Assembly: GCA_964636055.1 (NCBI GenBank)
Contig: CAZWPI010000001.1
Coordinates: 1-56,652, forward strand
Source of the DNA: an uncultured Candidatus Bathyarchaeia archaeon
Lineage (GTDB): Archaea > Thermoproteota > Bathyarchaeia > Bathyarchaeales > Bathycorpusculaceae
Reading direction: 5' to 3'
DNA: 56,652 bases
The position numbers were made by a program, and so were the translations under genes. The notes below the pieces were generated by a model. That model did not search any database and was not told where the DNA came from. It worked only from the letters and a program-made list of their open reading frames with translations. This document shows, piece after piece, positions 4,392-21,286 of the stretch. Each line of letters starts with the position of its first letter. The first letter of the stretch is position 1.

Positions 4392-4952
4392 ATGCCGAAG
4401 ACTGAAGCCATAATAACCATTCAAAATGTTGTTGCTACTGGAACTATGAACCAGAAAGTTGATTTAAACGCTGTTGTTAAGGTTTATCCAGGCGTAGAGT
4501 ATCGTCCGGAACGGTTTCCGGGGTTAGTATTTAGGCTTAAGAGACCGAAGACGGCTACGTTGATTTTTAGCACTGGTAAAATGGTTTGTACTGGAGCAAG
4601 ATCGGGAAAGGAATCCCGCAGTGCAATCATGAAGGTTGTTAAAGAACTGAAAAAGGTCGGAATAATCATCCTCAGCAAGCCAGACTTTAGGGTTGTGAAC
4701 ATTGTTGCCTCTGCAAGTCTAGGCGGAAAGGTAGATTTGGAGAAGATAGCTGTTACGCTTAGAAAAACGATGTATGAGCCGGAGCAGTTTCCAGGCTTGA
4801 TCTACAGGATGGACGAGCCTAAGGTGGTTATACTGATATTCGCAACCGGTAACCTTGTTGTGACAGGAGCGAAGGTAGAACAGGATGTTTATGACGCGGT
4901 GCATAAGCTTCACGGAAGCTTGGAGGAACAAAACCTCATATTCTACGAATAA
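4392..4952 (+). CDS. tbp: TATA-box binding protein
   Basis: 186 aa with the two TBP repeats (RPERFPGLVFRLKRPKTATLIFSTGKMVCTGA / EPEQFPGLIYRMDEPKVVILIFATGNLVVTGA). Confidence 0.97.
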   Translation: MPKTEAIITIQNVVATGTMNQKVDLNAVVKVYPGVEYRPERFPGLVFRLKRPKTATLIFSTGKMVCTGARSGKESRSAIMKVVKELKKVGIIILSKPDFRVVNIVASASLGGKVDLEKIAVTLRKTMYEPEQFPGLIYRMDEPKVVILIFATGNLVVTGAKVEQDVYDAVHKLHGSLEEQNLIFYE

Positions 4953-5128
4953 ACCTCCATACGTTAATAATTAAATTTTAATCCAACTGCACATTTTTTG
5001 TTGAATGTTGAATGTTAAAGCGCGCGCTTGTTGCGTTTATTAGTTTGTTTGTTAATGTTTAACCCTAATGTTCAGTGTCTACTTAGACGCGGAATATTGC
5101 ATGTACTCAAATCAACAACAAAAAAGGA

Positions 5129-5560
5129 GTGAAAAAAATGACGGAAGAAACAACCCCGAAACCTGTAGCTGAAAAGGCAGAAGAATCGACTTCCAAACAA
5201 GCAGTTGAGGACTCAGAAAAATCCACCCCTAAAACAGTCGCTGAAGAAACAAAGAGAACGACCAAGAAACCCGTAGAGAAAAAACCAGACGTTATTTTCA
5301 TCGGAAACAAACCACCCATGAGCTATGTGATGGCAGTCATGACTGCGCTATCTTCAGGTGCTATCACTGAAGTTACGCTTAAGGCCAGAGGCAGAGCAAT
5401 AACCACTGCTGTGGACGTGGCTGAAATAACCAGCAACCGCTTCATAAAAGATTTAGCAGTCACATCGGTAGGTATCGGAACGGAAGAGATGCCTGCAAGA
5501 GAAGGCGATAACAGGTCAAGAAACGTTTCAATAATAGAGATAAAACTTGCGAAGATATAG
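5129..5560 (+). CDS. albA: Alba (Sso10b-type) DNA/RNA-binding protein with ~50-aa charged N-terminal extension
   Basis: C-terminal ~90 aa: [16 protein letters not shown]...[17 protein letters not shown]...VSIIEIKL; N-terminal E/K/T-rich low-complexity part. Confidence 0.85.
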
Positions 5561-5904
5561 AATCAGTGCTGAACTCGAGAATAATTATTCTCCAATTTTT
5601 TGTACGGGGAGACCACAACAAAACTAATCCTAAAACCACACTTTTTTGTAACGCGCGTATGGGAATGAAGAAAGAAAATGAATAGTTAAAAGTTAAAGAT
5701 CCTGTGAATGGTAATATGTCCGTGAGTTTTGTCACTACTTCGGCTTTTTTCCGTATGCAGGATATTTCTTAAGTTTTGCATTATTACAGATTACGCAAAG
5801 CCCCCAAGGTTATAGAGGGCGCGCGCCAAGTTTTCAGCCAAAAGACCTAAATCAAGCGCATGCTATTTTTTACGGCATCAAAATAATGGGAATTAAGAAA
5901 TCAC

Positions 5905-6771
5905 TTGCGGAATCAAAGAATACTGCTTTTTGTTTGCCTCTTATTTTTAGCAAGCTTCTTGCTCGTAGCTCAGTTAAAAAACAGTTTCGTCATGATAGAC
6001 TTGCAAACGGATTCTTGGGCAGCGTCGATCCAGACAGATTCGTTTACTGCAATAGCTGTTGTAATTGCCTACATTTTTGATACAACTTCCCTGGCTGCGG
6101 TTTCTTTGGTGTTGGCTGTGTACTTATTCTACAGAAATTACAGAAAATACAGCGTGTTGCTGTTGACAGCTATGGGTGGAGACGCTCTCATAGTCTTGAT
6201 AGCAAAAACTTTGGTTCATTCACCCAGACCGCTAAACGGTTTAGTCTATGACGCAGGTTTTTCCTTTCCCAGCGGGCATACTACGGCAAGCATAGTTTTT
6301 TGCGGTTTGCTGACTTATCTCGCTTGGCAACATTGGAAATCTCCCAAAGCGAAAACAGTATCTAGCGCGCTTTCTATTACAATAATCTCAATCGTAGCCT
6401 TTGACAGAATATACCTCAATGTCCACTGGTTCAGTGATGTTGTTGGAGGCTGCCTTTTGGGGTTATTTTGGCTCACATTCTCATTATGGGTTTTCAGATA
6501 CGTAGAAAAAACCAAGGTATTTCAAAGGTCCAAATTCTGGACTAAACCCGCATCCGTATCAGCTCAACTCGTGCTAATCAAAACGCGAGCCAAAATCCAA
6601 CAGAACATGGAGCAAAGCCTTTTTTCCCCAGCTGGAAAAAGGGGCATCTGCTGTTACCAGTCGTCTCCTTCTTCGTCCCAACCTTCGTCGTCCTCAACGT
6701 CCTCTTCCTCAAACAATCGTGAGCACCTCCCAAAAAATGGTAAAGCGCCAGCTACACTAAACCTTTTCTGA
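5905..6771 (+). CDS. PAP2-family membrane phosphatase
   Basis: KTLVHSPRP, PSGH, FDRIYLNVHWFSDV motifs and several TM helices; Ser-rich last ~60 aa may be read-through, 3' end uncertain. Confidence 0.8.
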   Translation: MRNQRILLFVCLLFLASFLLVAQLKNSFVMIDLQTDSWAASIQTDSFTAIAVVIAYIFDTTSLAAVSLVLAVYLFYRNYRKYSVLLLTAMGGDALIVLIAKTLVHSPRPLNGLVYDAGFSFPSGHTTASIVFCGLLTYLAWQHWKSPKAKTVSSALSITIISIVAFDRIYLNVHWFSDVVGGCLLGLFWLTFSLWVFRYVEKTKVFQRSKFWTKPASVSAQLVLIKTRAKIQQNMEQSLFSPAGKRGICCYQSSPSSSQPSSSSTSSSSNNREHLPKNGKAPATLNLF

Positions 6772-6900
6772 ATTTTGGGTATTGAGCCGCGAATGAGGCT
6801 CACACAGGAAACGAATCCTTGTGGAGACAAATAACTGGGTATTACAAAGAATTTGTTATTTGTCTCAAAAAAGAGTTGCAAGAAACGCCTTCCGATGTAT

Positions 6901-7134
6901 CTATTCTTCAGTTAGCATTAGTGTTAGTGTCGACCTTACGTTCTTGATTTTTCTAAGGTGATGCGTCACAAGTTCCTTTAACCTTTCCATGGAATCAGCT
7001 TTAACTTTAACGACTAAGTCGTACACGCCGTAAGAAACGTAGGCTTCCTGTACCCCTCCAATACTCCTTACGTCCTTCAGCACTTGGTCTTCGGAACCTG
7101 CCCCAACATTGAACAGGACGTATGCTCGCGGCAT
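6901..7134 (-). CDS. stand-alone Lrp/AsnC-type ligand-binding (RAM) domain protein
   Basis: 77 aa, AYVLFNV...IGGVQEAYVSYGVYDLVVKV pattern. Confidence 0.8.
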   Translation of the reverse strand: MPRAYVLFNVGAGSEDQVLKDVRSIGGVQEAYVSYGVYDLVVKVKADSMERLKELVTHHLRKIKNVRSTLTLMLTEE

Positions 7135-7210
7135 TTCAAATCTCCTCTAGACTTCCACTCTTTCATCATAATTAAATCGTTCTACCCTTCCAGTTGGAAG
7201 GGATGTTATC

Positions 7211-7242
7211 AAAAGAAAAAAAGGAAATTGCGGGATATTTCC
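7211..7242 (+). repeat. oligoA / GCGGGA block, copy D
   Basis: AAAAGAAAAAAAGGAAATTGCGGGATATTTCC; related to 3493/3569/3746. Confidence 0.5.
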
Positions 7243-7285
7243 ACTTTTGTTGGGGGCTCGAATCCTTACCAGCGCCATCTTTTTG

Positions 7286-7312
7286 AAAACAGAAGAAAAA
7301 GCCTTCTGTTTT
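7286..7312. other. perfect 10-bp stem hairpin (AAAACAGAAG / CTTCTGTTTT), T/A-run flanked on both strands
   Basis: read directly; lies between divergent genes where no terminator is expected. Confidence 0.7.
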
Positions 7313-7320
7313 AGTGAGGT

Positions 7321-7342
7321 TCTGAACCCAATTGGGTTCAGA
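7321..7342. repeat. perfect 22-nt palindrome TCTGAACCCAATTGGGTTCAGA
   Basis: read directly; a diverged copy with flanks at 21483..21515 (core hairpin 21489..21506). Confidence 0.8.
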
Positions 7343-7568
7343 GACGAGCAGCCTTATCCATTGCTATTTGTTTGCATGTGAATGTGCATAGTTGAGGGCT
7401 AAGAACACGACTTATTGAAAATCGAAACTCAAAAGTCTCGTAAAAACTTATCAGATTTATGGACTTGACCCCGTTTGGGGGCTAGTCCAGCAGACCCGCG
7501 ATTTTCAACTGTAAACGAAATGTAAAAAAGGGCTTTTTTCACATTCTATAGAGAATAGAATCATTTGG

Positions 7569-8603
7569 ATGGTGGTTTTGATGAAACGGAAGGATTACCT
7601 GCAGAGTCCAGTGAAGCACATAAAAATAAACGGCACGCTGACAGTGAACCAGCTGATCCAACAGTTTCAGGGTTCAGGCTCTTTCGGGGCTGGAAGGCTC
7701 GCTCGGGCGTGCAACATTTACGAGAAAATGCTGCGAGACAAAGACTGCACCGTGTTTCTAGCTCTTTCTGGCGCCCTGGTTCCAGCGGGAATGCGCGCGC
7801 TCGTCACCGACCTCATTCGTGCAAGACTCGTCGATGTTATAGTCAGCACTGGAGCCAGCATGGTCCACGACACCATTGAAGCTTTGAATGGGCATCACTA
7901 TAAGGGAAGTTGGACCGCGGATGACCGTGAGCTTTACAGGTACCACATTTTCCGCATTTACGATGTTTTCGTTCCGGAAGAAGACTATGTGAAACTTGAT
8001 TACCAGATTTCTGAAATGTACCGGGAGATCGCGGGTGAGAGAAACGGAGAAAGCCTCTCTTCAAACGAGTTTGCGTGGGAACTGGGCAAGAGGCTCAAGG
8101 ACCCAAACTCTATTCTGCGCGCTGCGTATGAAGAAAACGTGCCCATCTTCATTCCCGCGGTCCGCGACTCGGAATTCGGCTACGTCCATCTGCTTCACGC
8201 TTCACAGGAAAACCAAAAAAACATACTAGCGGTTGACGCCTTCAAGGATGTGCCGCTTATATGCGATATCTGTGGGAAATCGCCTAAAAACGGGATGGTG
8301 GTGATTGGCGGGGGAGTGCCCAGAAACACGGTGCAATCTGCCGCCATAGCAGCCAATAAGGGCATGGACTACGCCGTGGTAATAACCATGGATCGGCCTG
8401 AAACTGGAGGCTTATCAGGTTCTACGCTTAGAGAAAGCATGAGTTGGGGAAAAGTGAGGGGAGACGCCGACAAGATCATGGTTATCGGCGATGCTTTAGT
8501 GATGTTCCCCCTGATTGTGGCTTCTGTGGTTGAGAGGCTGGGTAGCGAGTTCACGCGTACGCCGTATCTTAAACGCAGGCTTGGCACTCGGAGGAGAATG
8601 TGA
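7569..8603 (+). CDS. dys: deoxyhypusine synthase
   Basis: 344 aa; GAGRLARACNIYEKML, FLALSGALVPAGMR, VSTGASMVHD, GGGVPRN pattern of DHS. Confidence 0.92.
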   Translation: MVVLMKRKDYLQSPVKHIKINGTLTVNQLIQQFQGSGSFGAGRLARACNIYEKMLRDKDCTVFLALSGALVPAGMRALVTDLIRARLVDVIVSTGASMVHDTIEALNGHHYKGSWTADDRELYRYHIFRIYDVFVPEEDYVKLDYQISEMYREIAGERNGESLSSNEFAWELGKRLKDPNSILRAAYEENVPIFIPAVRDSEFGYVHLLHASQENQKNILAVDAFKDVPLICDICGKSPKNGMVVIGGGVPRNTVQSAAIAANKGMDYAVVITMDRPETGGLSGSTLRESMSWGKVRGDADKIMVIGDALVMFPLIVASVVERLGSEFTRTPYLKRRLGTRRRM

Positions 8604-8863: not shown

Positions 8864-8936
8864 AGCCCGGTGGTGTAGCGGTCAAGCATAGGGGCCTCTG
8901 GAGCCCTCGACGAGAGTTCGAATCTCTCCCGGGCTA
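8864..8936 (+). tRNA. tRNA-Gln (anticodon CUG)
   Basis: 73 nt folded by hand: acceptor AGCCCGG/CCGGGCT, D arm GTGT-AGCGGTCAA-GCAT, anticodon arm GGGGC-CTCTGGA-GCCCT, T arm GAGAG-TTCGAAT-CTCTC, discriminator A; no encoded CCA. Confidence 0.9.
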
Positions 8937-9724
8937 CTTTGTCCCGAGCTTGTGTTTATCATGTTTTGCTGGTTGTTTTCGCGGATTTCTTTTATCATTT
9001 GTTCCCGCAGAGCTGTTGTAAGCTGGGAGAGCTGATGGTTTTCGATTTGGCTTTGGTTGATTATGGTCATGTTTGGTCTGGTTAGGGCGTCGCGGGTTAA
9101 GATTTCTTCGGGGTTGAGTCCCCATGCGCGCATGATTTCTTTGAGGGCGTCGATTTTGGTTATTCTGGTTTTTGGTTGGATGCTTAGTCCTGATGATAGG
9201 TATATGCCTCTTAGGAATTCGGTGCCTTTCATTTTGATGTCGTGGTAGGTGCTTATGGTGTGTCCCATCATGTATTCGATGTAGTCGCGGTCTACGCCTA
9301 GTGCTGCCATTTGTGTGCGGAAGAATTTGCGTATGCTGTGGGCGCGTAGGTCGTAGCGTCTGCCTATGGGATTGGGGGTTAGGATTCCTGCTTCTATGTA
9401 GAGGTTGTGTATTATGCCGTGGAGTCGGACTGTGGTTATGGTTCTTACGTGTTTGTTGTGTCCGTCGCGGATTAGTGGGGAGTCGTCGCGGATGTTTTCT
9501 GGGGGTGTTCTGCCTCTGTAGCTGCCTTTTCTTCTGCTTTCCACGTATGCTTTGAGGTAGTCTGCGGCTTCTTGGCCTATGAATGTGTCGTAGTCGTGGT
9601 ATTTTCCTTTGGTGATTTCTGCTTCTACGTGGATGTGGATTGGGGTTATGCCTTTTTCGAGGTCGCGTTTGACGTGGCGGTATTGGAGTTTGACGAGTGT
9701 GCCTATGTGAAAGCCTCCTAGCGC
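8882..9724 (-). pseudogene. tyrosine recombinase / integrase, 5'-truncated
   Basis: LRAHSIRKFF...MGHTISTYHD (HxxR, H, Y); frame open only to 9724 with no start codon (track M at 9544 is an internal GTG); 3' end runs antisense into tRNA-Gln. Confidence 0.8.
8923..8937 (+). repeat. att core copy 1 (3' end of tRNA-Gln) TCTCTCCCGGGCTAC
   Basis: direct repeats at 21116, 21272, 22321. Confidence 0.8.
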
Positions 9725-9977
9725 TCACTGTAAGTATACCTCTTCGCGCAGGCAAAATCGCCTCACTTATGTTTTGTCAAAAAAATTACGCGAACTACTT
9801 TGAATAGATTGGGATAAAGTCTTAAAGATATATGCTGTATATGCTGTATACTGTTCTTTAAGGAACCCAAGTTGACGAATCCTATATGTACAAAGCTGAA
9901 AAACGAAATTGATGGAATAATCACCCGCAGCACAACAAAGCTTATTTCGCCACTCTTAATGCTGTTTTATCTTGAAT

Positions 9978-10997
9978 ATGTTGAAAAAAAACAAGAACCC
10001 AGTGGTTGAAAATGACTCTGTTAAGATAGGTTACGAAGCAACAATCTGCAATTTCATCAGGAACTACTTGCACCATAACTTCAACATAGGTGGAACGTTT
10101 AATGATACTTATATCAGCAGATTAAGTTCCCGACATCGTTTTTTGCGTCAAATTTCGCAAAGAAAATACGCAGTTCAAGAAGACTATTTCTCAAATGCTA
10201 AAGAATTAATTAACTATACGCAAGAGAAAATCGAAGAGCATCTGAACATGAAACTGGGCAACCTTGTCACTTTGAAAAAGCTCATCGAAAAAGACCATGA
10301 TAACAATAAAGAAATAGAAGCCCGAAGAAAATACTTGGAAAAAATACTACATGAGGACAACAGCCAGAAATTTCGAGAATTCTTGGAGGTTGGTTTCGAC
10401 AGAAAGGCTCGAGGGTTCTTAGCCATGTCATATGGCTTCGAAATATGCATGTTTTCCATATTGAAGGTTTTCTTGTTGAAGTTCGGATGTAGACTCGACC
10501 GCGACAGTAAAACATACGCTGTTGACAAAGGAGGTGACATTTCCACCAATTTCGGTGTTGTTTACCAAATTAAAAATTACTGTTTGACAAGTGAAGAGAA
10601 ATTTACGGAACTCCTGAATGAACTTTTTCTCAATTTTTCAGACGGCAGAATACAACAGGGAAACGTTTTCTTGATAGTTAAAGATGCATCCGATGGAATG
10701 ATGGCTCAACTAAAAAAGCAGAGTATTAATTGTATCACTGAAAAAAGCGTCATAGACTTGCTAGACAAACTAAATTCTGAAGAAAAACGCGAGGTCTTAA
10801 TGTCTATAGTTCGAGAATTTAACAGAGAACTACTAAGTGATGTGTGCAGAATATGCAAGAAAGCCGAAAAAGCAGAGTGCCCATACTCAGTCGGCGCTGT
10901 TTATTTTAGCCAATGCCCGTCTCCTCAGAAAAACGAGAAGCCAGCTCAAGTTTCCGACGGATTTTCTGAGAACGGAGCCATAAACAAGAAGTATTAG
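9978..10997 (+). CDS. hypothetical protein with Mrr-like PD-(D/E)xK nuclease core
   Basis: GFEICMFSILKVF...VDKGGDIS...VVYQIKNY...ELLNEL...VFLIV follows the Mrr catalytic-domain order (E, D, QxK); ATG at 9978 preferred over TTG 9972. Confidence 0.55.
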   Translation: MLKKNKNPVVENDSVKIGYEATICNFIRNYLHHNFNIGGTFNDTYISRLSSRHRFLRQISQRKYAVQEDYFSNAKELINYTQEKIEEHLNMKLGNLVTLKKLIEKDHDNNKEIEARRKYLEKILHEDNSQKFREFLEVGFDRKARGFLAMSYGFEICMFSILKVFLLKFGCRLDRDSKTYAVDKGGDISTNFGVVYQIKNYCLTSEEKFTELLNELFLNFSDGRIQQGNVFLIVKDASDGMMAQLKKQSINCITEKSVIDLLDKLNSEEKREVLMSIVREFNRELLSDVCRICKKAEKAECPYSVGAVYFSQCPSPQKNEKPAQVSDGFSENGAINKKY

Positions 10998-11026
10998 TCG
11001 TGTAGCGCTTAGAAACGACTACTATT
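10990..11026. repeat. AGAAGTAGT-family hairpin H1
   Basis: AGTATTAGTCGT-gtagcgcttagaa-ACGACTACTATT; overlaps stop of 9978..10997. Confidence 0.65.
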
Positions 11027-11181
11027 ACATTAACTCAAGTCAGCAACCAACCAAATGCACCCTGCTCAGAAAACACAACCGACAAAATTGAATTCTTATA
11101 CGCGTTGAAGCTAGCAACAATATTGATGATTCGATTTGCACGCTATTTTATAGCTCAAACGCAAAACATCTGAACTGTTTT

Positions 11182-12621
11182 TCACTTTTCTTTGTTAACA
11201 GTTGTAGTTTGAGTGTGTTTGGAGAGAATCAACGCGATTTTTTCATTATTATCCTTTAATCTACCTATTATTGATGCGACATGCTTGTGAATGTCCCTCT
11301 GTGATTTATCTATGCAATCGTTAATTTTCTTGCAATCATCTAAGCACTTCAGATTATCGTCTATGTGGCAGACTATGTCCTTGTCGTCCATTATGGCCTG
11401 CAAGTTAATTGTTTGCCTTCCAAATCGATAATTTGTCAGGTACAAATCATAAAACATCGCTAACGTGGAAGCAGCCATCTCAGGCGTTGTAATAATGACT
11501 ATGCCCAACGAATCATCAATTGTATAACCTTTAACCTTTGCTGATCTCGGCGGTTTCTTAACCGACAATATTGCCGTGGCAATCCCGTACCGGTTCATAT
11601 CCCTTTTCGTCTGCTCAAGATAATCGTTACTCCATGTATCGCTGGCTTTACTTTCAATCAATACACGGCCGATTTCTAAGTCCTGATACGAAAACTTGAC
11701 TATTATGTCCGTGGCATCTGGACCACCCAAAGGCTCAATGGCAACATTTTTGTTTGTCAAGAAAGTCTCGTTAATCAAATCGAGAAGTTCCAGCTCTGCT
11801 TTCTCACCTTTAACCGGCGCAATCTTTAGGCTCTGCAAAACAGTGTTAAGTCCGCCAGTAGCTCCTTCTATTCCACTTAAGACGTTCTTGATTTCAGCCT
11901 TAATCTCATCAATGCTCTTGCCTTGCTTAAGCAGAAGCTCGACCTTTTCCACAAGCGCCTTCATCTGCTCTTCAACAATCTCTCTCACAAACTTCTTGGT
12001 ATCTTCCTTCATTTCCGTCTGGAGCTGCTCAAGGCTCTTCTCGTGTTTCAGAAGAGTTTCAATCTTATCGACAACAATACACATTTGGCTCGATATCAGG
12101 TCCTTCACGAACTTTTCCGTATCTTCTTTTAGCGCCTTCTGAATTTCTTCAATACCTTTGCCCTGCTTGATCAAAATATCAACTTTTTCTACCAAGTAAG
12201 CCGTTTGCTCTTCAATGTTTTTCTTAACAAACTTCTCAGTTTCTTCCTTCCTCTTTTCAGTCTGCTCAACCATATCCTTCAGATAATCCTTAACAGACTT
12301 ACCCATAGATTCTTTAACGTCATCTACTGCCGAACTCATACCATCCTTGACATTCCCAAAATCACTTCGAATTTCCTTAAGCACCTGACTTACTATCTCA
12401 CGGACATCTGCACCTATCTTCATCTGTTGATCAATTGCCTTGAAAGCTTTGAGCGCAACACTCAATCGGTCATCATCTTGTAACTCAAACAACCAATCTC
12501 TGACTTCAGCGTCAATTTCAGCAAAAAAGCATGTCCGGTCAATTACTTCACAATACTTACGGCGAATTTTACGCGCCTTCCTGCTAGGAGAAACTGCAGC
12601 AGAAACCTCCAGCTTTGCCAT
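11182..12621 (-). CDS. coiled-coil protein with C-terminal PD-(D/E)xK domain (DUF2130-like)
   Basis: 479 aa; three 39-aa tandem repeats; C-terminal GGPDATDIIVKF...GRVLIESKASDTWSNDYLEQTKRDM pattern. Confidence 0.6.
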   Translation of the reverse strand: MAKLEVSAAVSPSRKARKIRRKYCEVIDRTCFFAEIDAEVRDWLFELQDDDRLSVALKAFKAIDQQMKIGADVREIVSQVLKEIRSDFGNVKDGMSSAVDDVKESMGKSVKDYLKDMVEQTEKRKEETEKFVKKNIEEQTAYLVEKVDILIKQGKGIEEIQKALKEDTEKFVKDLISSQMCIVVDKIETLLKHEKSLEQLQTEMKEDTKKFVREIVEEQMKALVEKVELLLKQGKSIDEIKAEIKNVLSGIEGATGGLNTVLQSLKIAPVKGEKAELELLDLINETFLTNKNVAIEPLGGPDATDIIVKFSYQDLEIGRVLIESKASDTWSNDYLEQTKRDMNRYGIATAILSVKKPPRSAKVKGYTIDDSLGIVIITTPEMAASTLAMFYDLYLTNYRFGRQTINLQAIMDDKDIVCHIDDNLKCLDDCKKINDCIDKSQRDIHKHVASIIGRLKDNNEKIALILSKHTQTTTVNKEK

Positions 12622-12810
12622 ACAATTTCCCTAATTAGTAAATCAAAGGTTTAAACTATAATCTTTATGAAATTATAGTATTAATAGCAAATAATGAGGC
12701 TAAATCATCAATCCTATGTTAAAAATTTGTTGAGTGTAACGCTAACAAAACCATAGAACCCCAGTTATTGCAAACATAACATGCGAAAAGCTCTCAATAA
12801 TATCCGCTTA

Positions 12811-15347
12811 TTAACTAAAACTAAGTGGCCTTGTGTAGGCAGCTATTTCTGCAAGAAACTCTGAGTTTTCGTTTTGACGAGTGTAGATAAATAGGTCTTC
12901 TTTTGCTCTGGTAACGGCAACATAGAAAAGTCTGCGTTCTTCTTCCTTTTGATCTTTTATTCCATTGTCTTCTCTTGCCACCTCAAAAATCGCTGGGTCT
13001 TCAATTTCGCTAGGAAAACCAAACTCACCTTTTACCACGTTCAAAATAAAAACAACCTTAGCCTCCAATCCTTTACATTTATGCACCGTGAGCAACCTAA
13101 CAGCGTTAGGCTCTTTGGCGTGGTCAACAGCTACTTTAAAACTGGAGGATTTCGAAGCCTCTATAAATTTTTGAACAATCTGAAAGAATCTGATTCTACC
13201 TTTAATCTTAGTTCGCATATACCGCGTAAGGATAAGAATCTCGTCTGCAGCATACCCCTTTCCTAAGTATTCGCCAATTCGCCTCAAACAATCTTGAACC
13301 GTCTCCTCAAAATACGCCTCATCCCATTTTTCCGCAGAACTGTAAACGGCGATTGGCTTAATCTCTTCAATATTTGACAGTGAGGGTTTCTGTACTTGAC
13401 TCGCGCCATTGTTTCTTATCAAATCTGCGCCAGCATCAACAATTGACTTAACGCTTCTGTAATTAGTACAGATTTTGCTTATCGCTGGATTTGCAAAGTA
13501 GTTACCAAAATTAACGAAGAAATTCAGGTTCGACCCAGAAAACCCCATTATGCTCTGCCAATCATCGCCAACGCAAAAAAGCTTGCAATCGGGATTCCGC
13601 TCAAGCAGCTTTTTAAGAAGTTTTAGCCTTTGAGCACTCATATCTTGATACTCATCTATCAGAATGTGGTCATACACATCTGCATACAAACTGCTGTCCT
13701 TCTCTAAAGCCTCAACAGCTTCGTTAATCATATCCTCAAAATCAGTCTTTTCAAATCTCTTCAACTGCATTTGATACGCCCGAAAAACCTCCAGCGCAAG
13801 CCTCCCAAACGCCAATTGCTTGCCGCTCCATCTTCCTCTCCTAAGTTTTCCTTCAATTTGCTCAGGACTTAAGCCATAAGTCTTCGCAATAGTAATAAAG
13901 TTCTGAATATCCTCGATAGGTGTCTTTTGAGAATCCCAAACCAATTCAAAATTTCTTCGTAATTCAAACGCGAAAACTCAAAACTTCGGTCTGGAAACTT
14001 TTTTTGAAGTGTCTCAAGGAGACGTTTTTTCAACAATTCATCGAACTCTTCAGGTTCTTCTGAATTATATTCGTAAGCAAAGGTTTCCATTAGAAGTCGA
14101 TTGTTTTCAGCAAACCACTTCTTTTTCTTCTCCATCGACTCGCGATATTCGTCGGTAGATTGACTGAACCATTCTGGCACTTCACCATCTTTACGAAGCC
14201 CCCAATGCTCAATGAAAACATCAAATTGAGGAAGATAAAAATCAGGTCTAAAACCACCAACGTCAGGCTCATAACCAACAAAAATCGGTTTTCCATTGAT
14301 TTTATGAGTCAGCAGGCAATCCATAATCTCTTTTTCAGCCCTGCTATTGACCTTCGTACCATTAATTGAAACGTAACTACGTTCTATTGCGTGAGCAACA
14401 ACCTCTCCCTTGTCCGCTTCAGTCGGCTCATCGTCGTTGTCATGAACAGTTTTTATGTAACGAATAAATAATCGATAAAAATCGCGATTAGTGACAATCT
14501 CTTCCTCAAAAAAACTCTTCACAAAACCAAACTTTCTGTTTTCATCAACAATGTCTGTTCTCTCTATTATCCTGCCAGAACGTTCAAGAATGTCTTTCCC
14601 AAGTTTGTGAAACGTTCTGACCCACACGTCATCGATTCCGTATCGGTCCCTTAGGCGCTGTTCGATTTGTTCCATTGCCTTTCTCTGATATGCTATTGCC
14701 AAAATCCGATTAGGCTCGACACCATCAGGTTCACGCTTAATCAAGTAGGCAATTCTAGTTATGAGCACTTCAGTTTTGCCTGAGCCTGCAGCTGCAACCA
14801 CAAGATTATGCTTGTCATCCGTAACAATCGCCGTCTGTTGCTCATCATCAAGAGAAATCAAGCCTTTCGACCATAGATGCTTATACTCATTTTTCCTCTG
14901 CTTCACAAACTCATCGTTATAGTTCATAACGGATAGTTTGCTTTTGTTGAGCGTTTTCCTAATTTCTGCAATGAATTCGGGACTAAGCACATTGTTTTCT
15001 TCGCATGCTACTATCTCCGATTCAGCTAACTCTATTCTCGAAAGACATCTTGCCTTTTTTGGATGAATTAAGTAGGTCCCACTTTCTTCTATTTCATGAG
15101 CAAACCTGCTGACTTCAGAAACATCCCCGCTTACTCTATTCCGAATTTTGTCAGTTAGTTGAGCAATTCGCCACCCATAATCTCCGCCAAACAGAAAACC
15201 AATCAGCAAAAACCTAAGAAACTTGATCCGTCTGCTTTTTTTGTAGTTTGATTTTAACTCATGTATTTCTTTCTCAAGTTCCGATAAATTCCTGGTTTCA
15301 GGTAAATTCCGCTTAGGTCCCAGTTTCTGCAAGCACATTTTCAGCAT
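12811..15347 (-). pseudogene. SF1 helicase of UvrD / helicase-IV type with embedded nuclease-like module, split by one frameshift
   Basis: AAAGSGKTEVL (Walker A), GGFRPDFYLPQFDVFIEHWG, ILIDEYQDMS, CVGDDWQSI, TNYRS, TVHKCKGLEAKVVF, FYVAVTRAKEDL; ORFs 13869..15347 and 12811..13944 overlap; frames join if the A4 run 13948..13951 were A5. Confidence 0.85.
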
Positions 15348-15573
15348 TCCAGTTTTCTATATAGTTTCACACATGGTAGAGCGATAAAGCACCCTTGGAA
15401 GTGACATAGCTTTTGCTATATCGACATAAGCATATAAAATTCGTTAAATGTAACTCATGATTGCAAATAACAGAACTAATGAAAAAGCTAATTGTCGCAA
15501 TTTGAAACGCTGTTCTCAGAGGAAATTTTTTCTTAAAACCATGCTGAAACTGGTTGAAGGAGCATTCAACTAT

Positions 15574-15609
15574 AAGTAGTAGTCGTATAGCGCTTCGCGC
15601 CGAGTACTT
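15574..15609. repeat. AGAAGTAGT-family element H2 (imperfect hairpin)
   Basis: AAGTAGTAGTCGTATAGCGCTT is 20/22 identical to H1; right arm CGAGTACTT. Confidence 0.55.
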
Positions 15610-15781
15610 CTAATTAATGCAATTTTAGAAATAGCTGACTGTAAAATATAGATCAGTATGTGCTTTCACCCAGCACCACAAACCTTGTGGATGACGAATA
15701 GAAAAACAAAGCTCTTATAGCGCGCTATAACTAACAAGCAGATCCCAGATTCTTCTAAAGCAAGCCTCCGCTGTCTTAAAC

Positions 15782-16496
15782 ATGGGGGAATTACGGTTGA
15801 AAATGAAAAAGGCGTCTAAGAAGAGGAGAAAGAAAAGTGGGAAACAGCTGACCAAAATCACTGTAAGTTCAAGATCCAAAACTTCAAAAACTTATGAAGA
15901 ATTTGCTTACATACTGGACGTTTACGACAAGAAGGATACAAGTTATGCACATGCTATCGGAGACAGATACTTCAAGCTTTTAGTTCTAAAGTTGAAGCCT
16001 TTGGATGAGAAACAATCATTGATCTTGAACCGAGTATTTATAGGCTCCTCAACGGAGCGCGACATCGTCGAAAGAGTTCAAGATAGAATAGTCTCAGCCA
16101 GAAAACTCAAAACAGGCTGGACACAATTTAAAACAGGTTGTTTATGAAATGGTTCGTGACAGATTGTTTGAGACTGAAAACAGTGGCAACGCAATTTTAC
16201 TCTTCTTTAACTTTGCCTCCCCAAGAGGTTTAAGGCAAATTGGCTTACCTAACTCAAACATTTACTCTCTAATTAAAGTTCGAGACGCGATGCTTCCAAA
16301 GAGATTCTCGAATATGCTTGAAGTAGCCCGGGCACTAAGTAAAACCGGATCAAAAGTTGACTCATATGACATAACTAAAATGATTAGGGCGAGAGTCCTC
16401 TATGAACTGGAACATGGCCAAAGTGAAGCTTTCTCTTTTCTTAGCTTTCTGGCCAATCCTGTTGACTATATTGAGAAGAATGCGGCACATATCTAA
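15782..16496 (+). pseudogene. DUF655 (COG1491)-like OB-fold / HhH protein paralog, frameshifted or split
   Basis: YEEFAYILDVYD...AIGDRYFKLLVLKLK...RVFIGS...DRI then, in the next frame, LKQVVYEMV...ILLFFNFASP follow the DUF655 order; frames join if A4 at 16109..16112 were A3. Confidence 0.5.
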
Positions 16497-16602
16497 TGCC
16501 AAACTCGGTGCGGCTTGCATCTGACGTACTTGCTTGAGATGTAAGTAATTGCGGAGAGAGGAGGTAGCTTGACGTTTTCTTTATGTTAGTAATCTTTCAA
16601 AC

Positions 16603-17262
16603 CTAAGATTCGACTTCTTTTCCTTTGTCGTGCATTTTCCACTTTCCAGTAAGTTCAGGTAAACTGCGAACTGCCTTGCGAAAAGCAGCAACAGGGCGCA
16701 TTTGACCTAGGAGAAGGTATGTATAGAAAAAGGTTGAGAACAAAGCAGCATGCTCCCAGTTTGTTGGAAGTACCGGTGCAATACAGTATCTGCACCCATT
16801 TTCTGAAACGGCTTGTATCAGATCTTTGTGACCTGCGCAACAAGCAGATAAAATGAGCAACAAAGGTCTTTCATCCTCCTTAAACTCCTTCCAAATGCCT
16901 CTTAAGTCATCAGCGTAAAGCTCTCCTCGACTCAAATCTAAATAAGTATCACCATCATCATCGACATCCCCGTGAGATGAAACATGGATTGTGTATTGAT
17001 AAGCATACTTTAAAGAGTCCACAAGGACTTTGGGACCGTATACTCTCTGCGACTGAATTTCAACTTCCTTCTTATTTTCAGCTCTTAATTGACGATTAAT
17101 AATCTCAAGATACCTCTCCAAAAAATCTATCTCAGAACACTTCTCTCTAGTTCTAACTGTGCAGTCAAGCAACAAAATAGAATTGCGAATTAATCTATAC
17201 TTTTTCTTTCGTGTTTTATGGGCTTTTTCGGCTGGACTAAGTGCTTTTCTACGTCTCCCCAA
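16603..17262 (-). CDS. minimal CHAT / caspase-fold-like peptidase
   Basis: 219 aa; His motif IHVSSHGD and Cys motif LLILSACCAGH in caspase/CHAT order; TTG start 6 nt after upstream stop. Confidence 0.55.
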   Translation of the reverse strand: MGRRRKALSPAEKAHKTRKKKYRLIRNSILLLDCTVRTREKCSEIDFLERYLEIINRQLRAENKKEVEIQSQRVYGPKVLVDSLKYAYQYTIHVSSHGDVDDDGDTYLDLSRGELYADDLRGIWKEFKEDERPLLLILSACCAGHKDLIQAVSENGCRYCIAPVLPTNWEHAALFSTFFYTYLLLGQMRPVAAFRKAVRSLPELTGKWKMHDKGKEVES

Positions 17263-17268
17263 GATTAA

Positions 17269-17748
17269 TCAACTTCCATAGGCTTTCTTAATTTTTCGAT
17301 GAATGAATTCTCGATACCAAAGTAAAGGATTTTCATTTCTCGAACTATCCATACTGAGTTTGATTAAAGGAAAAACATGTCGATATCTTGTTTCATAAAC
17401 CTTTGAGACCTCTGTGGCACGAAAGGATAGTTCAGCCAAATCGTTTTTATATTTTTCAAAAAGTTCTATTGGCGATTTTTCCTCGGTTCTAATGCGTCCG
17501 ATAAGCTCCCTACTTAGTTGTGCAAAGTCTCTCATCATTATCTGATCGCGAATATGCTCTTTGCCGAGAGAATAAGCTATTCCATAAATTATGGCTAAAT
17601 CGTTGTAACGCTGAAATCGTAGCTGACAATCACTGCAGAGGTCAAACGTCACCTTTATTGGCTTTTCAGAACTTGCGCAACGGACTATCTCGCTTCGAAG
17701 ATGTTTGCAGCAGTATTCGCACAAAACTCTTGCCTTGCTGGTGCTCAC
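17269..17748 (-). CDS. zinc-ribbon protein with helical C-terminal part
   Basis: CEYCC...CSDC at N-terminus; GTG start; co-oriented and abutting the CHAT-like gene. Confidence 0.5.
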   Translation of the reverse strand: MSTSKARVLCEYCCKHLRSEIVRCASSEKPIKVTFDLCSDCQLRFQRYNDLAIIYGIAYSLGKEHIRDQIMMRDFAQLSRELIGRIRTEEKSPIELFEKYKNDLAELSFRATEVSKVYETRYRHVFPLIKLSMDSSRNENPLLWYREFIHRKIKKAYGS

Positions 17749-17899
17749 TTTAACTCTCTTCTACAATGCTAAGTTTTTCTATAAAACGTTTAATGTATTG
17801 CCTGATCATCAGACTGAAAAGTAGGAACAAGAAATCAAGGAAATTCCGATGGTTGGGTGCTTTTAAGCATGAGCCTTAGAACGCGCCCGTAACATGCCA

Positions 17900-17942
17900 A
17901 GAAGTAGTAGTGCGCTGTGATTTTGGCTAGACTACTACTTCT
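17900..17942. repeat. AGAAGTAGT-family hairpin H3 (perfect 12-bp stem)
   Basis: AGAAGTAGTAGT-19 nt-ACTACTACTTCT between AbiEii 3' end and Zn-ribbon gene start. Confidence 0.8.
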
Positions 17943-18015
17943 AGTTTATTTTACTTAGCTTTCCTGAGAAATCACGAGAAATAAGGTATCCTTCGATCTC
18001 CAGCTTTTAAAAGCA

Positions 18016-18899
18016 TTAAACCGACTTTTTATAACTCGCCACAAATGATGCTTCTTTATGTGATTTGGAGTCTTTAATTATTCTAAGCAGGTCGCTGTCC
18101 AAGTCGCTGAGAAATGAGTATTCTGCTATAACCTTTTTAACTACTGTTGCCTCCGAGGGCAGACCTTTCCTTCTAACCAAGCGCTGAAGGTCTTCCCAGT
18201 CGTATTCGCCTCCAGAGATTTTCTCAAACAGTACATCAGGCTTGAAAGGTTCACGCACATTCCAGCACTTAAGTACTGCTAGCTTCTTCAATCTGACTTT
18301 GTCCATTGGTCTTCCTGAAAACAAATAAAGGTCGTACAAATCCCTGCTTCTAAGCCGTTGAAAGGCAGCCCTTAATTTCTCAGCCAACAGCTCTTCTTTC
18401 TGCAAACATTTTATAGAAAAACTCGGGAATTCCAGATACTTGAAATACATCTCTTCAAACTGAGGCATTTCAACAGGCGCCAATATTGGGCTCTCTCTAT
18501 AACTCACTTCCAAACTGAACTCTGAAGAATTCCATCCATGAACATAATTAATTTGAGCTAGGTAAGATTCATCATTAGCACCAAACCCACGTCTAATGTT
18601 CTCTTCCGCGATTTTGAATTTTATGCCATAATGCTGCTTATCATTCAGCAAATTAGAGAGCGCTTTCTTGAGTTCTTCCACTGAAACACCAACACTGGTA
18701 AAGTCCAAATCCATCGAAAACCGGCCACTTCCGCCGAAGAACAACTTCTTCAAGCAGGTTCCACCTTTGAAAACCAAATTTGCTAGTACATCTTAGAAAG
18801 AATTTTCAAGACGTAAGTGAGAACGACATCTCTCTCAGCCACATCTAAAGGAACGTTTGAAGATCTTGCGTAGAAATCAACAAATTTTCTCTCCAACAA
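18016..18899 (-). pseudogene. AbiEii/AbiGii-family nucleotidyltransferase toxin, one frameshift near the 5' end
   Basis: VFKGGTCLKKLFFGGSGRFSMDLDF in main ORF; upstream frame 18899..18783 encodes LLERKFVDFYARSSNVPLDVAERDVVLTYVLKILSK (typical AbiEii N-terminus); joined by adding one base at ~18793. Confidence 0.75.
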
Positions 18900-18905
18900 A
18901 CAGTC

Positions 18906-20135
18906 TCACCTTACCTCAATTTCGCTTAACAATTGCTCTTCAGAAACGTTGTTCATTACTCTCCAATCTCTAGAAAACGCCCCCCTTTTTGGTCTCCTCC
19001 TATCAAGATAAACGGTAGCATTCCCCACATAGCTTTTCAACATGATCTTCAGATGCGGAGACAATGGCTCCAGTATATCATCTTTCTCCAGAAAATCAAT
19101 AATAAAACCTAGACGCTGGACCAAAGAATGTGATTTCATTCTTAATGCGTAATCCACCAGCTTCTCTAGATTAATCTGAGGAAAACCCCTCCAAACGATT
19201 CTAGCGAGCTGCTCTATTCCCCCTGCATAATGCGGCTTGTCGAATGAGTCAATAATGGCTTTTTCAGGTTCAGCCATGCAGACCTCTGCGTCAAACACTT
19301 TTGCAGTTCGATAGCCAAAAAACTTCCTTTTTGAAAGCGTAACAAACTTGAAATTGACACTCTGCCATTCAACATCGGCCTTCTTCTTAGTCGTAGCAAT
19401 GAAATAAGTGAACGGCATCTGAGTGGTAAAGCCATAATGACTATTCGCCGTATAATAACTGAAGTAATATGGGTCAACAAAGGCAGCGCCCACAGCAAAT
19501 GCGTTTGACGGAGGAATTTTGTTTGGATAAAGACCATACGCAGATGGAACAAACTGATAAGTTCCAGTTTCGATCCTTTCAAGCCACCGTTTCTTCTCTA
19601 GACTGTGTAGGAGAACGTATGCATAGTCAAGTGTACAATTTAAAACGCTTTTAATATCGGAGGCTCGAATTATCGTCTTCTTTTCAGTTTCCCACTTAGT
19701 CACTAATCTTGCCTCGTCAGGAGACAATTTACGGATTCGCATTTGTCTCTGGCTTTCGGGAATACGTCTCAGTTTCCTTTGAGTTATTCCTAGTTCCTTA
19801 AAAGTGACAAGCCTGATAGAAAGCTGCTCTAGCTCATTCCTTATAGGCAGCGTCACACTTGAACCAACTATAACCAGTTCAAATTTCTTGAGAGTTGGAT
19901 AGATGTTGGAAATAGATGAGTATAGATTAAGAATTTTGCTTAACATAGAACGATCTATCCTATGTGAAATTACATCTACGAAAACATCCTTACCCTTGTT
20001 ATCCTTGAAATGAAAATCAATTTCGATATTCCCTGGAAGCTTTTCGTTTGTGGCAACTAGAGTGTAGTCCTTAAAGATATTCACTAACTCTCTAGAAATA
20101 TACGCTTCTAACTCATTCTTCACATCTATCACCAT
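18906..20135 (-). CDS. AbiEi-like antitoxin / transcriptional regulator with extra ~130-aa N-terminal domain
   Basis: LSPDEARLVTKWETEKKTIIRASDI...RWLERIETGTYQFVP and AIIDSFDKPHYAGGIEQLARIV match the AbiEi pattern; immediately upstream of AbiEii. Confidence 0.7.
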   Translation of the reverse strand: MVIDVKNELEAYISRELVNIFKDYTLVATNEKLPGNIEIDFHFKDNKGKDVFVDVISHRIDRSMLSKILNLYSSISNIYPTLKKFELVIVGSSVTLPIRNELEQLSIRLVTFKELGITQRKLRRIPESQRQMRIRKLSPDEARLVTKWETEKKTIIRASDIKSVLNCTLDYAYVLLHSLEKKRWLERIETGTYQFVPSAYGLYPNKIPPSNAFAVGAAFVDPYYFSYYTANSHYGFTTQMPFTYFIATTKKKADVEWQSVNFKFVTLSKRKFFGYRTAKVFDAEVCMAEPEKAIIDSFDKPHYAGGIEQLARIVWRGFPQINLEKLVDYALRMKSHSLVQRLGFIIDFLEKDDILEPLSPHLKIMLKSYVGNATVYLDRRRPKRGAFSRDWRVMNNVSEEQLLSEIEVR

Positions 20136-20472
20136 CTATCGAATAACTACTTACTAGCAACACCATTATATTTTTTTCGTATTTCCTTAGTAGATTCTAC
20201 ACATTATACTAAGATTATCAGAAATAAAAATAATAACAGACAATCCCCTTGAAACCCCTAGAAAAATAGACTCTAGTACAAATCTAATCTACGCCCCCCT
20301 TCTTTAATACCAAAGATTCTAGCATTTCAGACTACCAACAAATCAAACAACAAAAACACATAATGGAATACCAGATACGAAAATGATAAGTTATGGTGGA
20401 AAACTCACCACTCAATCGACTAGAATAGAAACTACCTCCGATTTTATGCTAGTGCTTCTGTAAACAAATGTT

Positions 20473-21015
20473 TTACTGTGTTGTTCTCCCATCACGAGTG
20501 TACTCACTGATTCGTTCAGCCAAGAAGTAAAATCTTGGCACGGTACGTTGAGGATTAGCCACAATTTTGCCTTTACGCCTCAAACGCAATATGATCCTGC
20601 GAAAAGCGTCGTGTTTTAACTCTAGAAAGTCTCGATAACTGAATTCCCGCGTTAAATCTCTCGCCTTGTTAAGAACATACGCTTCAAAAAGAGCACTATT
20701 AATTGTTTTCTGGAACTCTTTTCTTACACAACTTAAGTTGTAGGGCTCTCGGCGAGGCTTGGAAACCTGATACTGAAAAACGTTATTCTGCTGAATATTC
20801 ACAACCTGCTGCCCATTGCGAACTTGGGCTGCGCCTTCAATGCCTTTCATAAAGGAATCAGTCAAGCTAAGCGTCAGGTGGCACACGTCCATGCCGTTGT
20901 CTTTAGCCCACTGAACATAAGCCTTCCACCGCTGAAACTGCTTCAGGTTAGGAGCACGAAAATTGCAGATAAGATTCTTAGGCTGAACAACTGAAACTGC
21001 ATGGTCCCTAACCAT
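20473..21015 (-). CDS. hypothetical protein (possible wHTH at C-terminus)
   Basis: 180-aa ATG ORF at the right end of the element. Confidence 0.45.
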   Translation of the reverse strand: MVRDHAVSVVQPKNLICNFRAPNLKQFQRWKAYVQWAKDNGMDVCHLTLSLTDSFMKGIEGAAQVRNGQQVVNIQQNNVFQYQVSKPRREPYNLSCVRKEFQKTINSALFEAYVLNKARDLTREFSYRDFLELKHDAFRRIILRLRRKGKIVANPQRTVPRFYFLAERISEYTRDGRTTQ

Positions 21016-21115
21016 AAAAACTCAGCCTCACAAATTCGCAAAAAATAGAAAAAAGAGGCAGATGCTTTGTTTTCCCGAGGCTCAAATCGTATGAATTCAT
21101 GCCTAGGCGCCCGTA

Positions 21116-21130
21116 TCTCCCGGGCTACCA
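21116..21130 (+). repeat. att core copy 2 (TCTCCCGGGCTAC + CA)
   Basis: 13/13 match to the tRNA-Gln 3' end; discriminator A followed by CCA. Confidence 0.7.
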
Positions 21131-21159
21131 TTGTCTTCTGTTAGTTGGGTTTTTTGTTT

Positions 21160-21198
21160 AGAAGTAGTTGTGAGGGGTTGCTTAGCACAACATCTTCT
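21160..21198. repeat. AGAAGTAGT-family hairpin H4
   Basis: AGAAGTAGTTGTG-13 nt-CACAACATCTTCT (11 of 13 pairs) inside the 145-bp scar. Confidence 0.6.
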
Positions 21199-21271
21199 TA
21201 GGGATTGAGCTGTTTTTTGTGTTTTGGTTTTTGAATTGATTTGGGTTTGTGTTTCAGAAGTGGAAGTTGTC

Positions 21272-21286
21272 TCTCTCCCGGGCTAC
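21272..21286 (+). repeat. att core copy 3 TCTCTCCCGGGCTAC
   Basis: 15/15 identical to 8923..8937. Confidence 0.8.

Follow-up and report, generated by a model that had tools for sequence, protein, structure and literature searches.

A small CHAT-type protease with a predicted caspase-like fold in a degraded archaeal island, and its relatives at type I restriction-modification loci

A pair of adjacent genes was studied in a 56,652-nt stretch of DNA (hereafter the window; positions 1 to 56,652 of contig CAZWPI010000001.1, assembly GCA_964636055.1) from an uncultured Candidatus Bathyarchaeia archaeon, together with the relatives of the small CHAT/caspase-like protease which the pair encodes. The locus consists of two minus-strand open reading frames (ORFs). 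The upstream ORF (17269..17748, GTG start) codes for a 159-aa protein with a Zn-ribbon and a helical domain, the downstream ORF (16603..17262, TTG start) for a 219-aa protein that we call mini-CHAT, and 6 nt separate the TGA stop of the first from the TTG start of the second. An original prediction, made from the DNA sequence, had described exactly these ORFs and this spacing, and the motifs it listed are all present, namely CEYCC...CSDC in the Zn-ribbon protein and IHVSSHGD and LLILSACCAGH behind a basic N-terminus in mini-CHAT. Both ORFs share one frame and are separated by a single TGA. A read-through or recoded fusion of the two in-frame ORFs was considered, and is ruled out by a close relative of the locus (L029), in which a 1-nt deletion places the ORFs in different frames. 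Since the TGA and the TTG are both retained there despite the frame change, the Zn-ribbon protein and mini-CHAT are encoded by two genes.

A TATA-like box (TTTATA, 17780..17785, minus strand), read from the sequence ∼34 nt upstream of the GTG start, is the putative archaeal promoter of this two-gene operon. The promoter-region block ...GTTTTATAGAAAAACTT...GAAGAGAGTTAAA is kept in two related loci, L027 and L029. Compared with the close relatives, the ratio of nonsynonymous to synonymous substitution rates (dN/dS) is 0.25 for mini-CHAT and 0.22–0.62 for the Zn-ribbon gene, the latter from small counts, and by this measure both ORFs are under purifying selection; against more distant homologues dN/dS is unusable, as synonymous sites are saturated. 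Between the 3′ end of the neighbouring AbiEii gene and the promoter of the pair lies a hairpin (17900..17942) with a perfect 12-bp stem and a 19-nt loop, for which the chance expectation is 0. L029 keeps the stem with a different loop, and the homology between the window and L029 begins at this position. The hairpin marks the upstream edge of the module common to both. The pair had been predicted to be bracketed by two hairpins of one family (H2 and H3). One hairpin does stand upstream, but no hairpin with a perfect stem of at least 8 bp was found downstream of mini-CHAT, nor does the upstream hairpin have a sequence relative elsewhere in the window.

The 219-aa product is almost certainly a CHAT-type caspase-fold protease, in fold as well as in family. 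In the Pfam comparison its residues 50–201 match profile positions 108–266 of 289 of the CHAT family (PF12770) with 26.1 bits (E 7e-6) against a gathering score of 24, and Pfam finds no further domain in the protein. The AlphaFold2 (AF2) model, built from an alignment of 19 family members, reaches pLDDT 90.2 and pTM 0.88 and shows a core of alternating strands and helices (residues 28–212), which is preceded by a basic N-terminal helix (residues 10–27). When this model was compared with the PDB by Foldseek, the best match was the CHAT domain of the SAVED-CHAT filament (8tl0; E 7e-10, TMq 0.64), with ∼199 of the 219 residues aligned. The CHAT anti-sigma factor DdvA and Csx29/TPR-CHAT came next, then caspase-3/7, gingipain and metacaspases, all with a probability of ∼1.0. 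Among viral proteins, an uncharacterised myovirus protein and giant-virus caspases matched best. A profile of mini-CHAT gave no meaningful match with PDB sequences, so the relatives in the PDB came from the fold search only.

The catalytic residues of mini-CHAT can be predicted from its conserved motifs. In a hidden Markov model alignment with 15 classical CHAT proteins (460–2400 aa), IHVSSHG corresponds to (V/I)HLATHGQF and LLILSAC to LLVLSAC, which designates His97 (codon 16972–16974, minus strand) and Cys141 (codon 16840–16842, minus strand) as the predicted catalytic residues. Neither varies among 35 small relatives, with identities as low as 24%, and the same holds for E44 (codon 17131–17133, minus strand), H93 (codon 16984–16986, minus strand) and Y180. 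H97 is followed by an equally invariant G98 in the same 35 sequences; in the model H97 lies within strand 91–100, and C141 closes strand 135–141. By likeness to Arg/Lys-specific clan CD enzymes, the invariance of E44, which follows strand 1, hints at a basic P1 specificity. The idea of a caspase/CHAT-like protein with His and then Cys in the right order is thus borne out, with Pfam, AF2, Foldseek and the motif alignment in agreement. The original prediction had named the lack of a caspase-like fold as the outcome that would speak against it, and the profile and structure searches instead returned such a predicted fold (8tl0, TMq 0.64). In the Bathyarchaeia subfamily, four further cysteines, C34, C42, C157 and C160 (window 16783–17163), show no or almost no variation and may constitute a metal or disulfide site peculiar to it. 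They were rejected as a structural Zn site of the family, since they are not kept in the wider small-CHAT family.

Judged from its relatives, mini-CHAT shares its small size with the family and has not been truncated. Among 5.8 billion proteins, 21 close homologues with 47–93% identity were recovered, all of ∼190–260 aa, and a profile run exhaustively against 1.84 billion cluster representatives gave 453 matches at E<1e-3. Almost all matches at E<1e-10 are short (∼60–330 aa, many of them fragments), and classical CHAT proteins of 500–1500 aa surface only at E ∼1e-8 and weaker. A precomputed PF12770 match exists for most family members. The two genome matches of mini-CHAT are Bathyarchaeia metagenome-assembled genomes, and the other gene contexts are archaeal too, with genes for TBP, TFIIB, Gar1, L40e and deoxyhypusine synthase. 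On this evidence the mini-CHATs are a small archaeal family of stand-alone CHAT proteins of ∼170–260 aa, mostly from Bathyarchaeia. No relatives were found in IMG/VR viral contigs, INPHARED phages or PLSDB plasmids, which leaves a viral or plasmid origin unsupported. PADLOC and NCBIfam hold no family model for mini-CHAT or for the Zn-ribbon protein, and a survey of the full-text literature returned no account of a stand-alone or HTH-fused mini-CHAT, nor of a linkage between CHAT and type I restriction-modification.

Within the family the N-terminus varies. Some distant mini-CHATs (P0028, P0031, P0044 and P0052) carry a fused N-terminal helix-turn-helix (HTH), joined through a basic AHxTRRK linker that is the same element as the N-terminal helix of the window protein, and a populous 195-aa subfamily has no N-terminal extension at all. 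Degraded copies were found in 5 of ∼19 distinct loci: L007 has a premature in-frame stop, L019 is frameshifted, and L020–L022 are truncated at the 5′ end and have thereby lost the catalytic His. This points to a rapid turnover of mini-CHAT.

The Zn-ribbon protein, in turn, has only three homologues (92, 89 and 49% identity) in the same 5.8 billion proteins. Its Cys knuckles C10/C13(/C14) and C38/C41 are encoded within 17626–17721, and none of the six Cys in the Zn-ribbon region varies, even in the homologue with 49% identity. The basic C-terminal tail HRKIKKA (window 17269–17313) is likewise invariant in that homologue, and no other part of the C-terminal half is as well conserved; the tail is predicted to be disordered and may serve as a binding or targeting peptide. 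Since the AF2 model, calculated from 4 sequences, reached a pLDDT of only 50.9, it is unusable and no fold is assigned. A profile search of the PDB related residues 78–145 to the HTH region of ParB (4umk) with a marginal E of 0.008, and Pfam found no match for the isolated C-terminal domain. A Rosetta-stone link from this helical domain to the HTH extensions of distant mini-CHATs was tried and rejected, as the hhalign probability of 4% was not significant.

According to the original prediction, the Zn-ribbon protein is a dedicated partner of the protease. As a dedicated two-gene immune system, the pair would combine a Zn-ribbon sensor or inhibitor with mini-CHAT as the effector that kills or arrests the infected cell. 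The 6-nt gap and the common conserved promoter, which point to an operon, would fit such a system, and so would the purifying selection on both genes, the defence-island setting and the preservation of the pair in three close relatives, where stop and start codons persist despite an indel. Furthermore, the distant mini-CHAT of L024 also follows a Zn-ribbon gene, albeit an unrelated one. The distribution of the Zn-ribbon gene nevertheless argues against a dedicated partner. It lies beside mini-CHAT only in the nearly identical loci L027/L028 and L029 (89–93% protein identity), and no homologue of it was found in ∼18 other distinct mini-CHAT loci. Since the co-occurrence is confined to this range of identity, it reflects shared ancestry and provides no independent evidence for pairing. 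In addition, L023, which holds the homologue with 49% identity, shows no mini-CHAT within the 264 nt that follow, and neither gene matched any PADLOC model. The original prediction was to fall if homologues of the two genes never co-localised, and the survey came close to this result. A two-gene immune system appears unlikely to us. Comparative data indicate instead an operon of this lineage that is not conserved as a two-gene system, with the Zn-ribbon gene as a lineage-specific add-on.

The pair is located in a low-GC island of ∼12.35 kb (8938–21286), which carries all defence-type genes of the window. On the left it is bounded by a tRNA-Gln(CTG) gene (8864..8937, plus strand) that directly follows the gene for deoxyhypusine synthase, and the 3′ 15 nt of this tRNA gene (8923–8937) form the left attachment-site repeat. 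The right boundary is an exact 15-nt copy of the tRNA-Gln 3′ end, TCTCTCCCGGGCTAC (21272..21286, plus strand); by an arithmetic estimate for both strands of the window, ∼1e-4 such matches are expected by chance. Between the repeats the GC content is 0.38–0.41 compared to 0.46–0.50 outside. Two overlapping ORFs that abut the tRNA (8882..9755, minus strand) are a probable frameshifted remnant of a tyrosine integrase, with weak but concordant matches to Phage_integrase (22.9 bits) and the archaeal Phage_integr_3 (22.2 bits), both below the cut-off. Synteny between the window and L031 stops exactly at the 3′ end of tRNA-Gln. Due to the tRNA 3′ repeat, the low GC content, the integrase remnant and the break in synteny, we consider the pair as cargo of a degraded integrative island. 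L031, which comes from another Bathyarchaeial lineage, has the same arrangement of deoxyhypusine synthase and tRNA-Gln, and there (4530–7588; also in L032–L034) a 195-aa small CHAT gene lies 1.1 kb past the tRNA in the opposite orientation; no second attachment repeat of at least 11 nt was found in L031. Since synteny breaks off right at the end of the tRNA gene, this tRNA is a recurrent insertion hotspot, with small CHAT genes in two lineages.

Inside the island the pair stands, as had been predicted, between a helicase module and an AbiE module, and its assignment to a defence island was right. The UvrD/GajB-like helicase gene (12811..15347, minus strand) has a PD-(D/E)xK-like insert and is split by a frameshift near 13900. 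Two abutting plus-strand ORFs (15782..16496) between helicase and mini-CHAT show a weak DUF655 match and are possibly one broken gene. On the other side lies AbiE (18016..20135, minus strand), with AbiEi at 18906–20135 (PADLOC E 7e-63) and AbiEii at 18016–18777 (E 2e-52). AbiEii is frameshifted (18016–18900), its N-terminus FVDFYARSSNVPLDVAERDVVLTYVLKIL being encoded in another frame. AbiE forms a distinct system, and the mini-CHAT pair is served by a conserved promoter of its own. The pair is intact amid the frameshifted helicase, AbiEii and probably integrase genes, and these frameshifts represent either true decay or indel errors of the assembly. Two further island genes may be defence components: one for a 479-aa coiled-coil protein (11182–12621, minus strand) with weak ZorA/LeoB-like coiled-coil matches, and one for a 341-aa protein (9972–10997, plus strand) with a weak match to the HaeII restriction endonuclease.

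Among the ∼14 mini-CHAT loci with usable flanks, genes for type I restriction-modification (R-M) lie within 6 kb of mini-CHAT at six (L001, L003, L006, L013, L021 and L024). In L001 and L003 the genes are co-directional in the order hsdM-hsdS-(x)-hsdR-ygjP-miniCHAT, with the start of mini-CHAT overlapping the gene for a YgjP-like metallopeptidase, and in L024 the order is hsdM-hsdS-hsdR-TBP-ZnR-miniCHAT, again co-directional. L006, L013 and L021 have an EcoEI-type hsdR-hsdM-hsdS operon that is convergent on mini-CHAT. These gene orders represent at least three architectures, and type I R-M, with or without a YgjP-like metallopeptidase, is apparently the most common host operon of the family.

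Two of these R-M loci have additional features. In L024 (1–6675, the P0026 locus) a gene for a 182-aa TBP paralogue lies next to that for the 75-aa Zn-ribbon protein between hsdR and mini-CHAT; a restriction operon is an uncommon place for a TBP. YgjP-like genes (PF01863, WLM/SprT-like) are located at 6598–8001 in L001, at 7432–8019 in L003 and at 1375–1779 in L011, and the protein of L001 has an uncharacterised C-terminal extension of ∼360 aa. With YgjP-like peptidase and mini-CHAT, two different proteases are appended to one restriction system.

The gene that precedes mini-CHAT on the same strand varies strongly. Apart from the YgjP-like gene that overlaps its start in L001 and L003, it encodes a 75-aa Zn-ribbon protein in L024 (CPNC...CNCG), which also overlaps the start and is unrelated to the Zn-ribbon protein of the window, a 95-aa protein in L013/14 that is ribbon-helix-helix (RHH)-like by eye only, an ArsR-type HTH protein in L035/36, a tyrosine integrase in L015/16, and uncharacterised proteins in L009, L011, L012 and L022. 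The constant element across the family is the protease alone, which is added at the 3′ end of varied operons, often with a stop/start overlap. Repeatedly, mini-CHAT is joined with what we predict to be a small nucleic-acid-binding module, that is the basic helix, a fused HTH, an upstream Zn-ribbon, an ArsR-type HTH or the RHH-looking gene.

Two small and tightly coupled genes with a variable upstream member are also typical of modular type II toxin-antitoxin loci. A comparable addiction module would consist of mini-CHAT as toxic protease and the interchangeable upstream gene as antitoxin, and would stabilise the island. The operon layout of the window, L013/14 and L024 fits this idea, the protease gene is often pseudogenised, and the adjacent AbiE is itself a toxin-antitoxin/abortive infection (Abi) module. 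However, many mini-CHATs have no plausible antitoxin, since the upstream gene encodes a YgjP-like peptidase, an integrase or a 388-aa protein, or no same-strand gene precedes them, and the 195-aa subfamily is solitary. We consider an addiction module to be very improbable.

Integrases are found near mini-CHAT in L004/5, L007 and L015/16, and AbiE components in the window and in L003, the neighbourhood of which also holds a Schlafen/AlbA_2 protein. Neighbours in L009 are the PADLOC candidate PDC-M34B and an HNH endonuclease. The integrases that adjoin mini-CHAT in L004/5 and L015/16, as well as the position of the window pair inside an integrated element, would suit a protease and repressor module of a mobile element. 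In such an ImmA/ImmR- or LexA-like module the DNA-binding partner, or in relatives the fused HTH, would repress genes of the element, and its cleavage by the CHAT protease would switch the state of the element. HTH-CHAT fusions do recall the HTH-peptidase layout of self-cleaving repressors, and small DNA- or Zn-binding proteins are encoded upstream at several loci. Yet the mini-CHATs of L001, L003 and L024 end type I R-M operons and do not stand beside integrases, some members occur in housekeeping contexts, and in the window ∼7 kb lie between the pair and the integrase remnant. A DNA-binding role of the partner is moreover a tentative prediction, given its pLDDT of 50.9, the ParB match at E 0.008 and the hhalign probability of 4%. 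A repressor-cleaving module is improbable in our judgement.

We tentatively favour the reading that mini-CHAT is a catalytically competent, minimal stand-alone CHAT (clan CD) cysteine protease that archaeal defence islands and integrative elements carry as an accessory; we regard this as plausible, if still short of probable. Its relatives are patchy in occurrence, lie next to R-M, integrase and Abi genes, are often pseudogenised and were absent from the searched collections of phages, plasmids and viruses, which is the pattern of an accessory gene and not of a core gene. In the window, mini-CHAT is probably co-transcribed with the lineage-specific Zn-ribbon/helical protein from a TATA promoter of their own.

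Several observations weigh against mini-CHAT as a defence accessory. No type I R-M (hsd) genes are present in the whole 56-kb window, so that an R-M-linked role cannot be direct for the window copy. As L006, L013 and L021 share one layout and maybe go back to one ancestral event, the R-M association comprises ∼3–4 independent events, not six, and is suggestive. The RHH label of the upstream gene of L013/14 was given by eye, and Pfam and PDB searches gave no match for it. Likewise, the ParB-HTH likeness of the Zn-ribbon protein is marginal and its comparison with the fused HTH not significant, and the activity of mini-CHAT as well as DNA binding by its basic helix are predictions from the sequence.

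In addition, some mini-CHATs are found among housekeeping genes, namely in L002/L038, with Pirin and a GHMP kinase, and in L031–34 and L035/36, where members of the 195-aa subfamily stand alone. These neighbourhoods, and the many frameshifted genes of the window island, would agree with a housekeeping or otherwise non-immune protease, or with a decaying gene without function, that is merely located in a variable region. The window gene is, however, full length, retains all invariant residues and has a dN/dS of 0.25, and the family is patchy, is found beside R-M, integrase and Abi genes and is often pseudogenised. A non-immune or functionless gene is rather improbable for these reasons.

If mini-CHAT is indeed an accessory protease of defence islands, it would be tethered to DNA, or to a DNA-bound partner, by the basic helix, the HTH or the partner protein, and on a trigger would cut a DNA-associated target. 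Type I restriction offers two precedents for the R-M-linked members. ClpXP degrades translocating HsdR, which is known as restriction alleviation and represents an established control of type I restriction (PMC12707154), and the guard protein PrrC is embedded in the type I R-M locus EcoprrI (PMC12707154). R-M-linked mini-CHATs may act on a component of the restriction complex, and the protease would then be an archaeal counterpart of ClpXP-mediated restriction alleviation. Alternatively, it may cut a cellular protein and act as a guard comparable to PrrC or as an abortive back-up. For the window copy, the likeliest regulator or substrate would be the Zn-ribbon protein. Still further goes the notion of a so far unrecognised class of portable archaeal immune accessories, in which a bare caspase-fold protease, tethered to nucleic acid by its basic helix, an HTH or a small partner, plugs into type I R-M and other systems and either acts as a guard that responds once restriction is inhibited or replaces ClpXP control of HsdR; we find this doubtful. 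If this notion of a portable accessory were true, caspase-like proteolysis would be directly coupled to restriction-modification.

The unit of interest is the protease in its R-M/YgjP context and not the pair with the Zn-ribbon protein, by which the original hypothesis is corrected; the association with type I R-M/YgjP operons and integrative elements tells more than that with the Zn-ribbon gene. In defence systems, the characterised CHAT/caspase-like proteases (Craspase, SAVED-CHAT and the gasdermin activators among them) are controlled through large sensor domains or through dedicated partners. How a caspase-fold protease is regulated without a built-in sensor is the question raised by a family reduced essentially to the catalytic domain. 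Most archaea are not known to have ClpXP, and the link to type I restriction leads to the testable idea of proteolytic control or guarding of restriction in archaea. As comparative evidence on a small family, these results are probably of moderate practical impact.

Among known systems, the best structural matches of mini-CHAT are SAVED-CHAT (8tl0), Csx29/TPR-CHAT of type III-E CRISPR (8eey, 7zoq) and DdvA (8rot), which have the same predicted fold and the same order and context of motifs (HxSxHG ... LSAC). Like mini-CHAT, several known CHAT proteases occur at defence loci. However, these proteins comprise 470–900 aa and are gated by SAVED, TPR or transmembrane sensor domains, whereas mini-CHAT corresponds to a bare catalytic domain of ∼190 aa plus a 27-residue basic helix, without a sensor domain and with a sequence identity of 12–18% to them. 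They serve type III CRISPR, CBASS or sigma-factor signalling, while no cas or CBASS genes are near mini-CHAT; cas, SAVED and TPR genes were absent among the neighbours in the window and in ∼20 related loci. Therefore, mini-CHAT belongs to CHAT and clan CD by its Pfam score above threshold, its aligned motifs and its predicted fold, but has neither the fused TPR or SAVED domain nor the cas linkage of type III CRISPR CHAT proteins. It also lacks the adjacent gasdermin gene of the gasdermin-activating proteases, since no match to the gasdermin family was found among the window island genes or the called genes of the related loci. The C14 caspases, metacaspases and orthocaspases are comparable in size and single-domain fold (Foldseek E ∼3e-4 and TM ∼0.5 for caspase-3/7 and yeast metacaspase). 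Unlike these, mini-CHAT is assigned by Pfam to CHAT and not to Peptidase_C14, is matched better in structure by CHAT domains, and has no evident p20/p10 linker or prodomain.

With regard to gene order, the closest parallels are the PrrC/RloC guards and restriction alleviation by ClpXP, since the mini-CHATs of L001, L003 and L024 are embedded as the extra gene that ends an hsdM-hsdS-hsdR operon; those of L006, L013 and L021 are adjacent and convergent, and the window copy holds no such position. PrrC is an anticodon nuclease and ClpXP an AAA+ serine protease, neither of them homologous to mini-CHAT, and the analogy is functional speculation only. ImmA/ImmR and LexA/CI likewise combine a protease with a small DNA-binding module, in trans or in cis, on integrative elements, similar to the HTH-CHAT fusions, but their proteases are Zn-metalloproteases or S24 serine peptidases, whereas mini-CHAT is a predicted cysteine protease. 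The fold class of mini-CHAT is already known, and it differs from the described systems in its bare catalytic domain and in its archaeal context of type I R-M, YgjP-like peptidases and islands.

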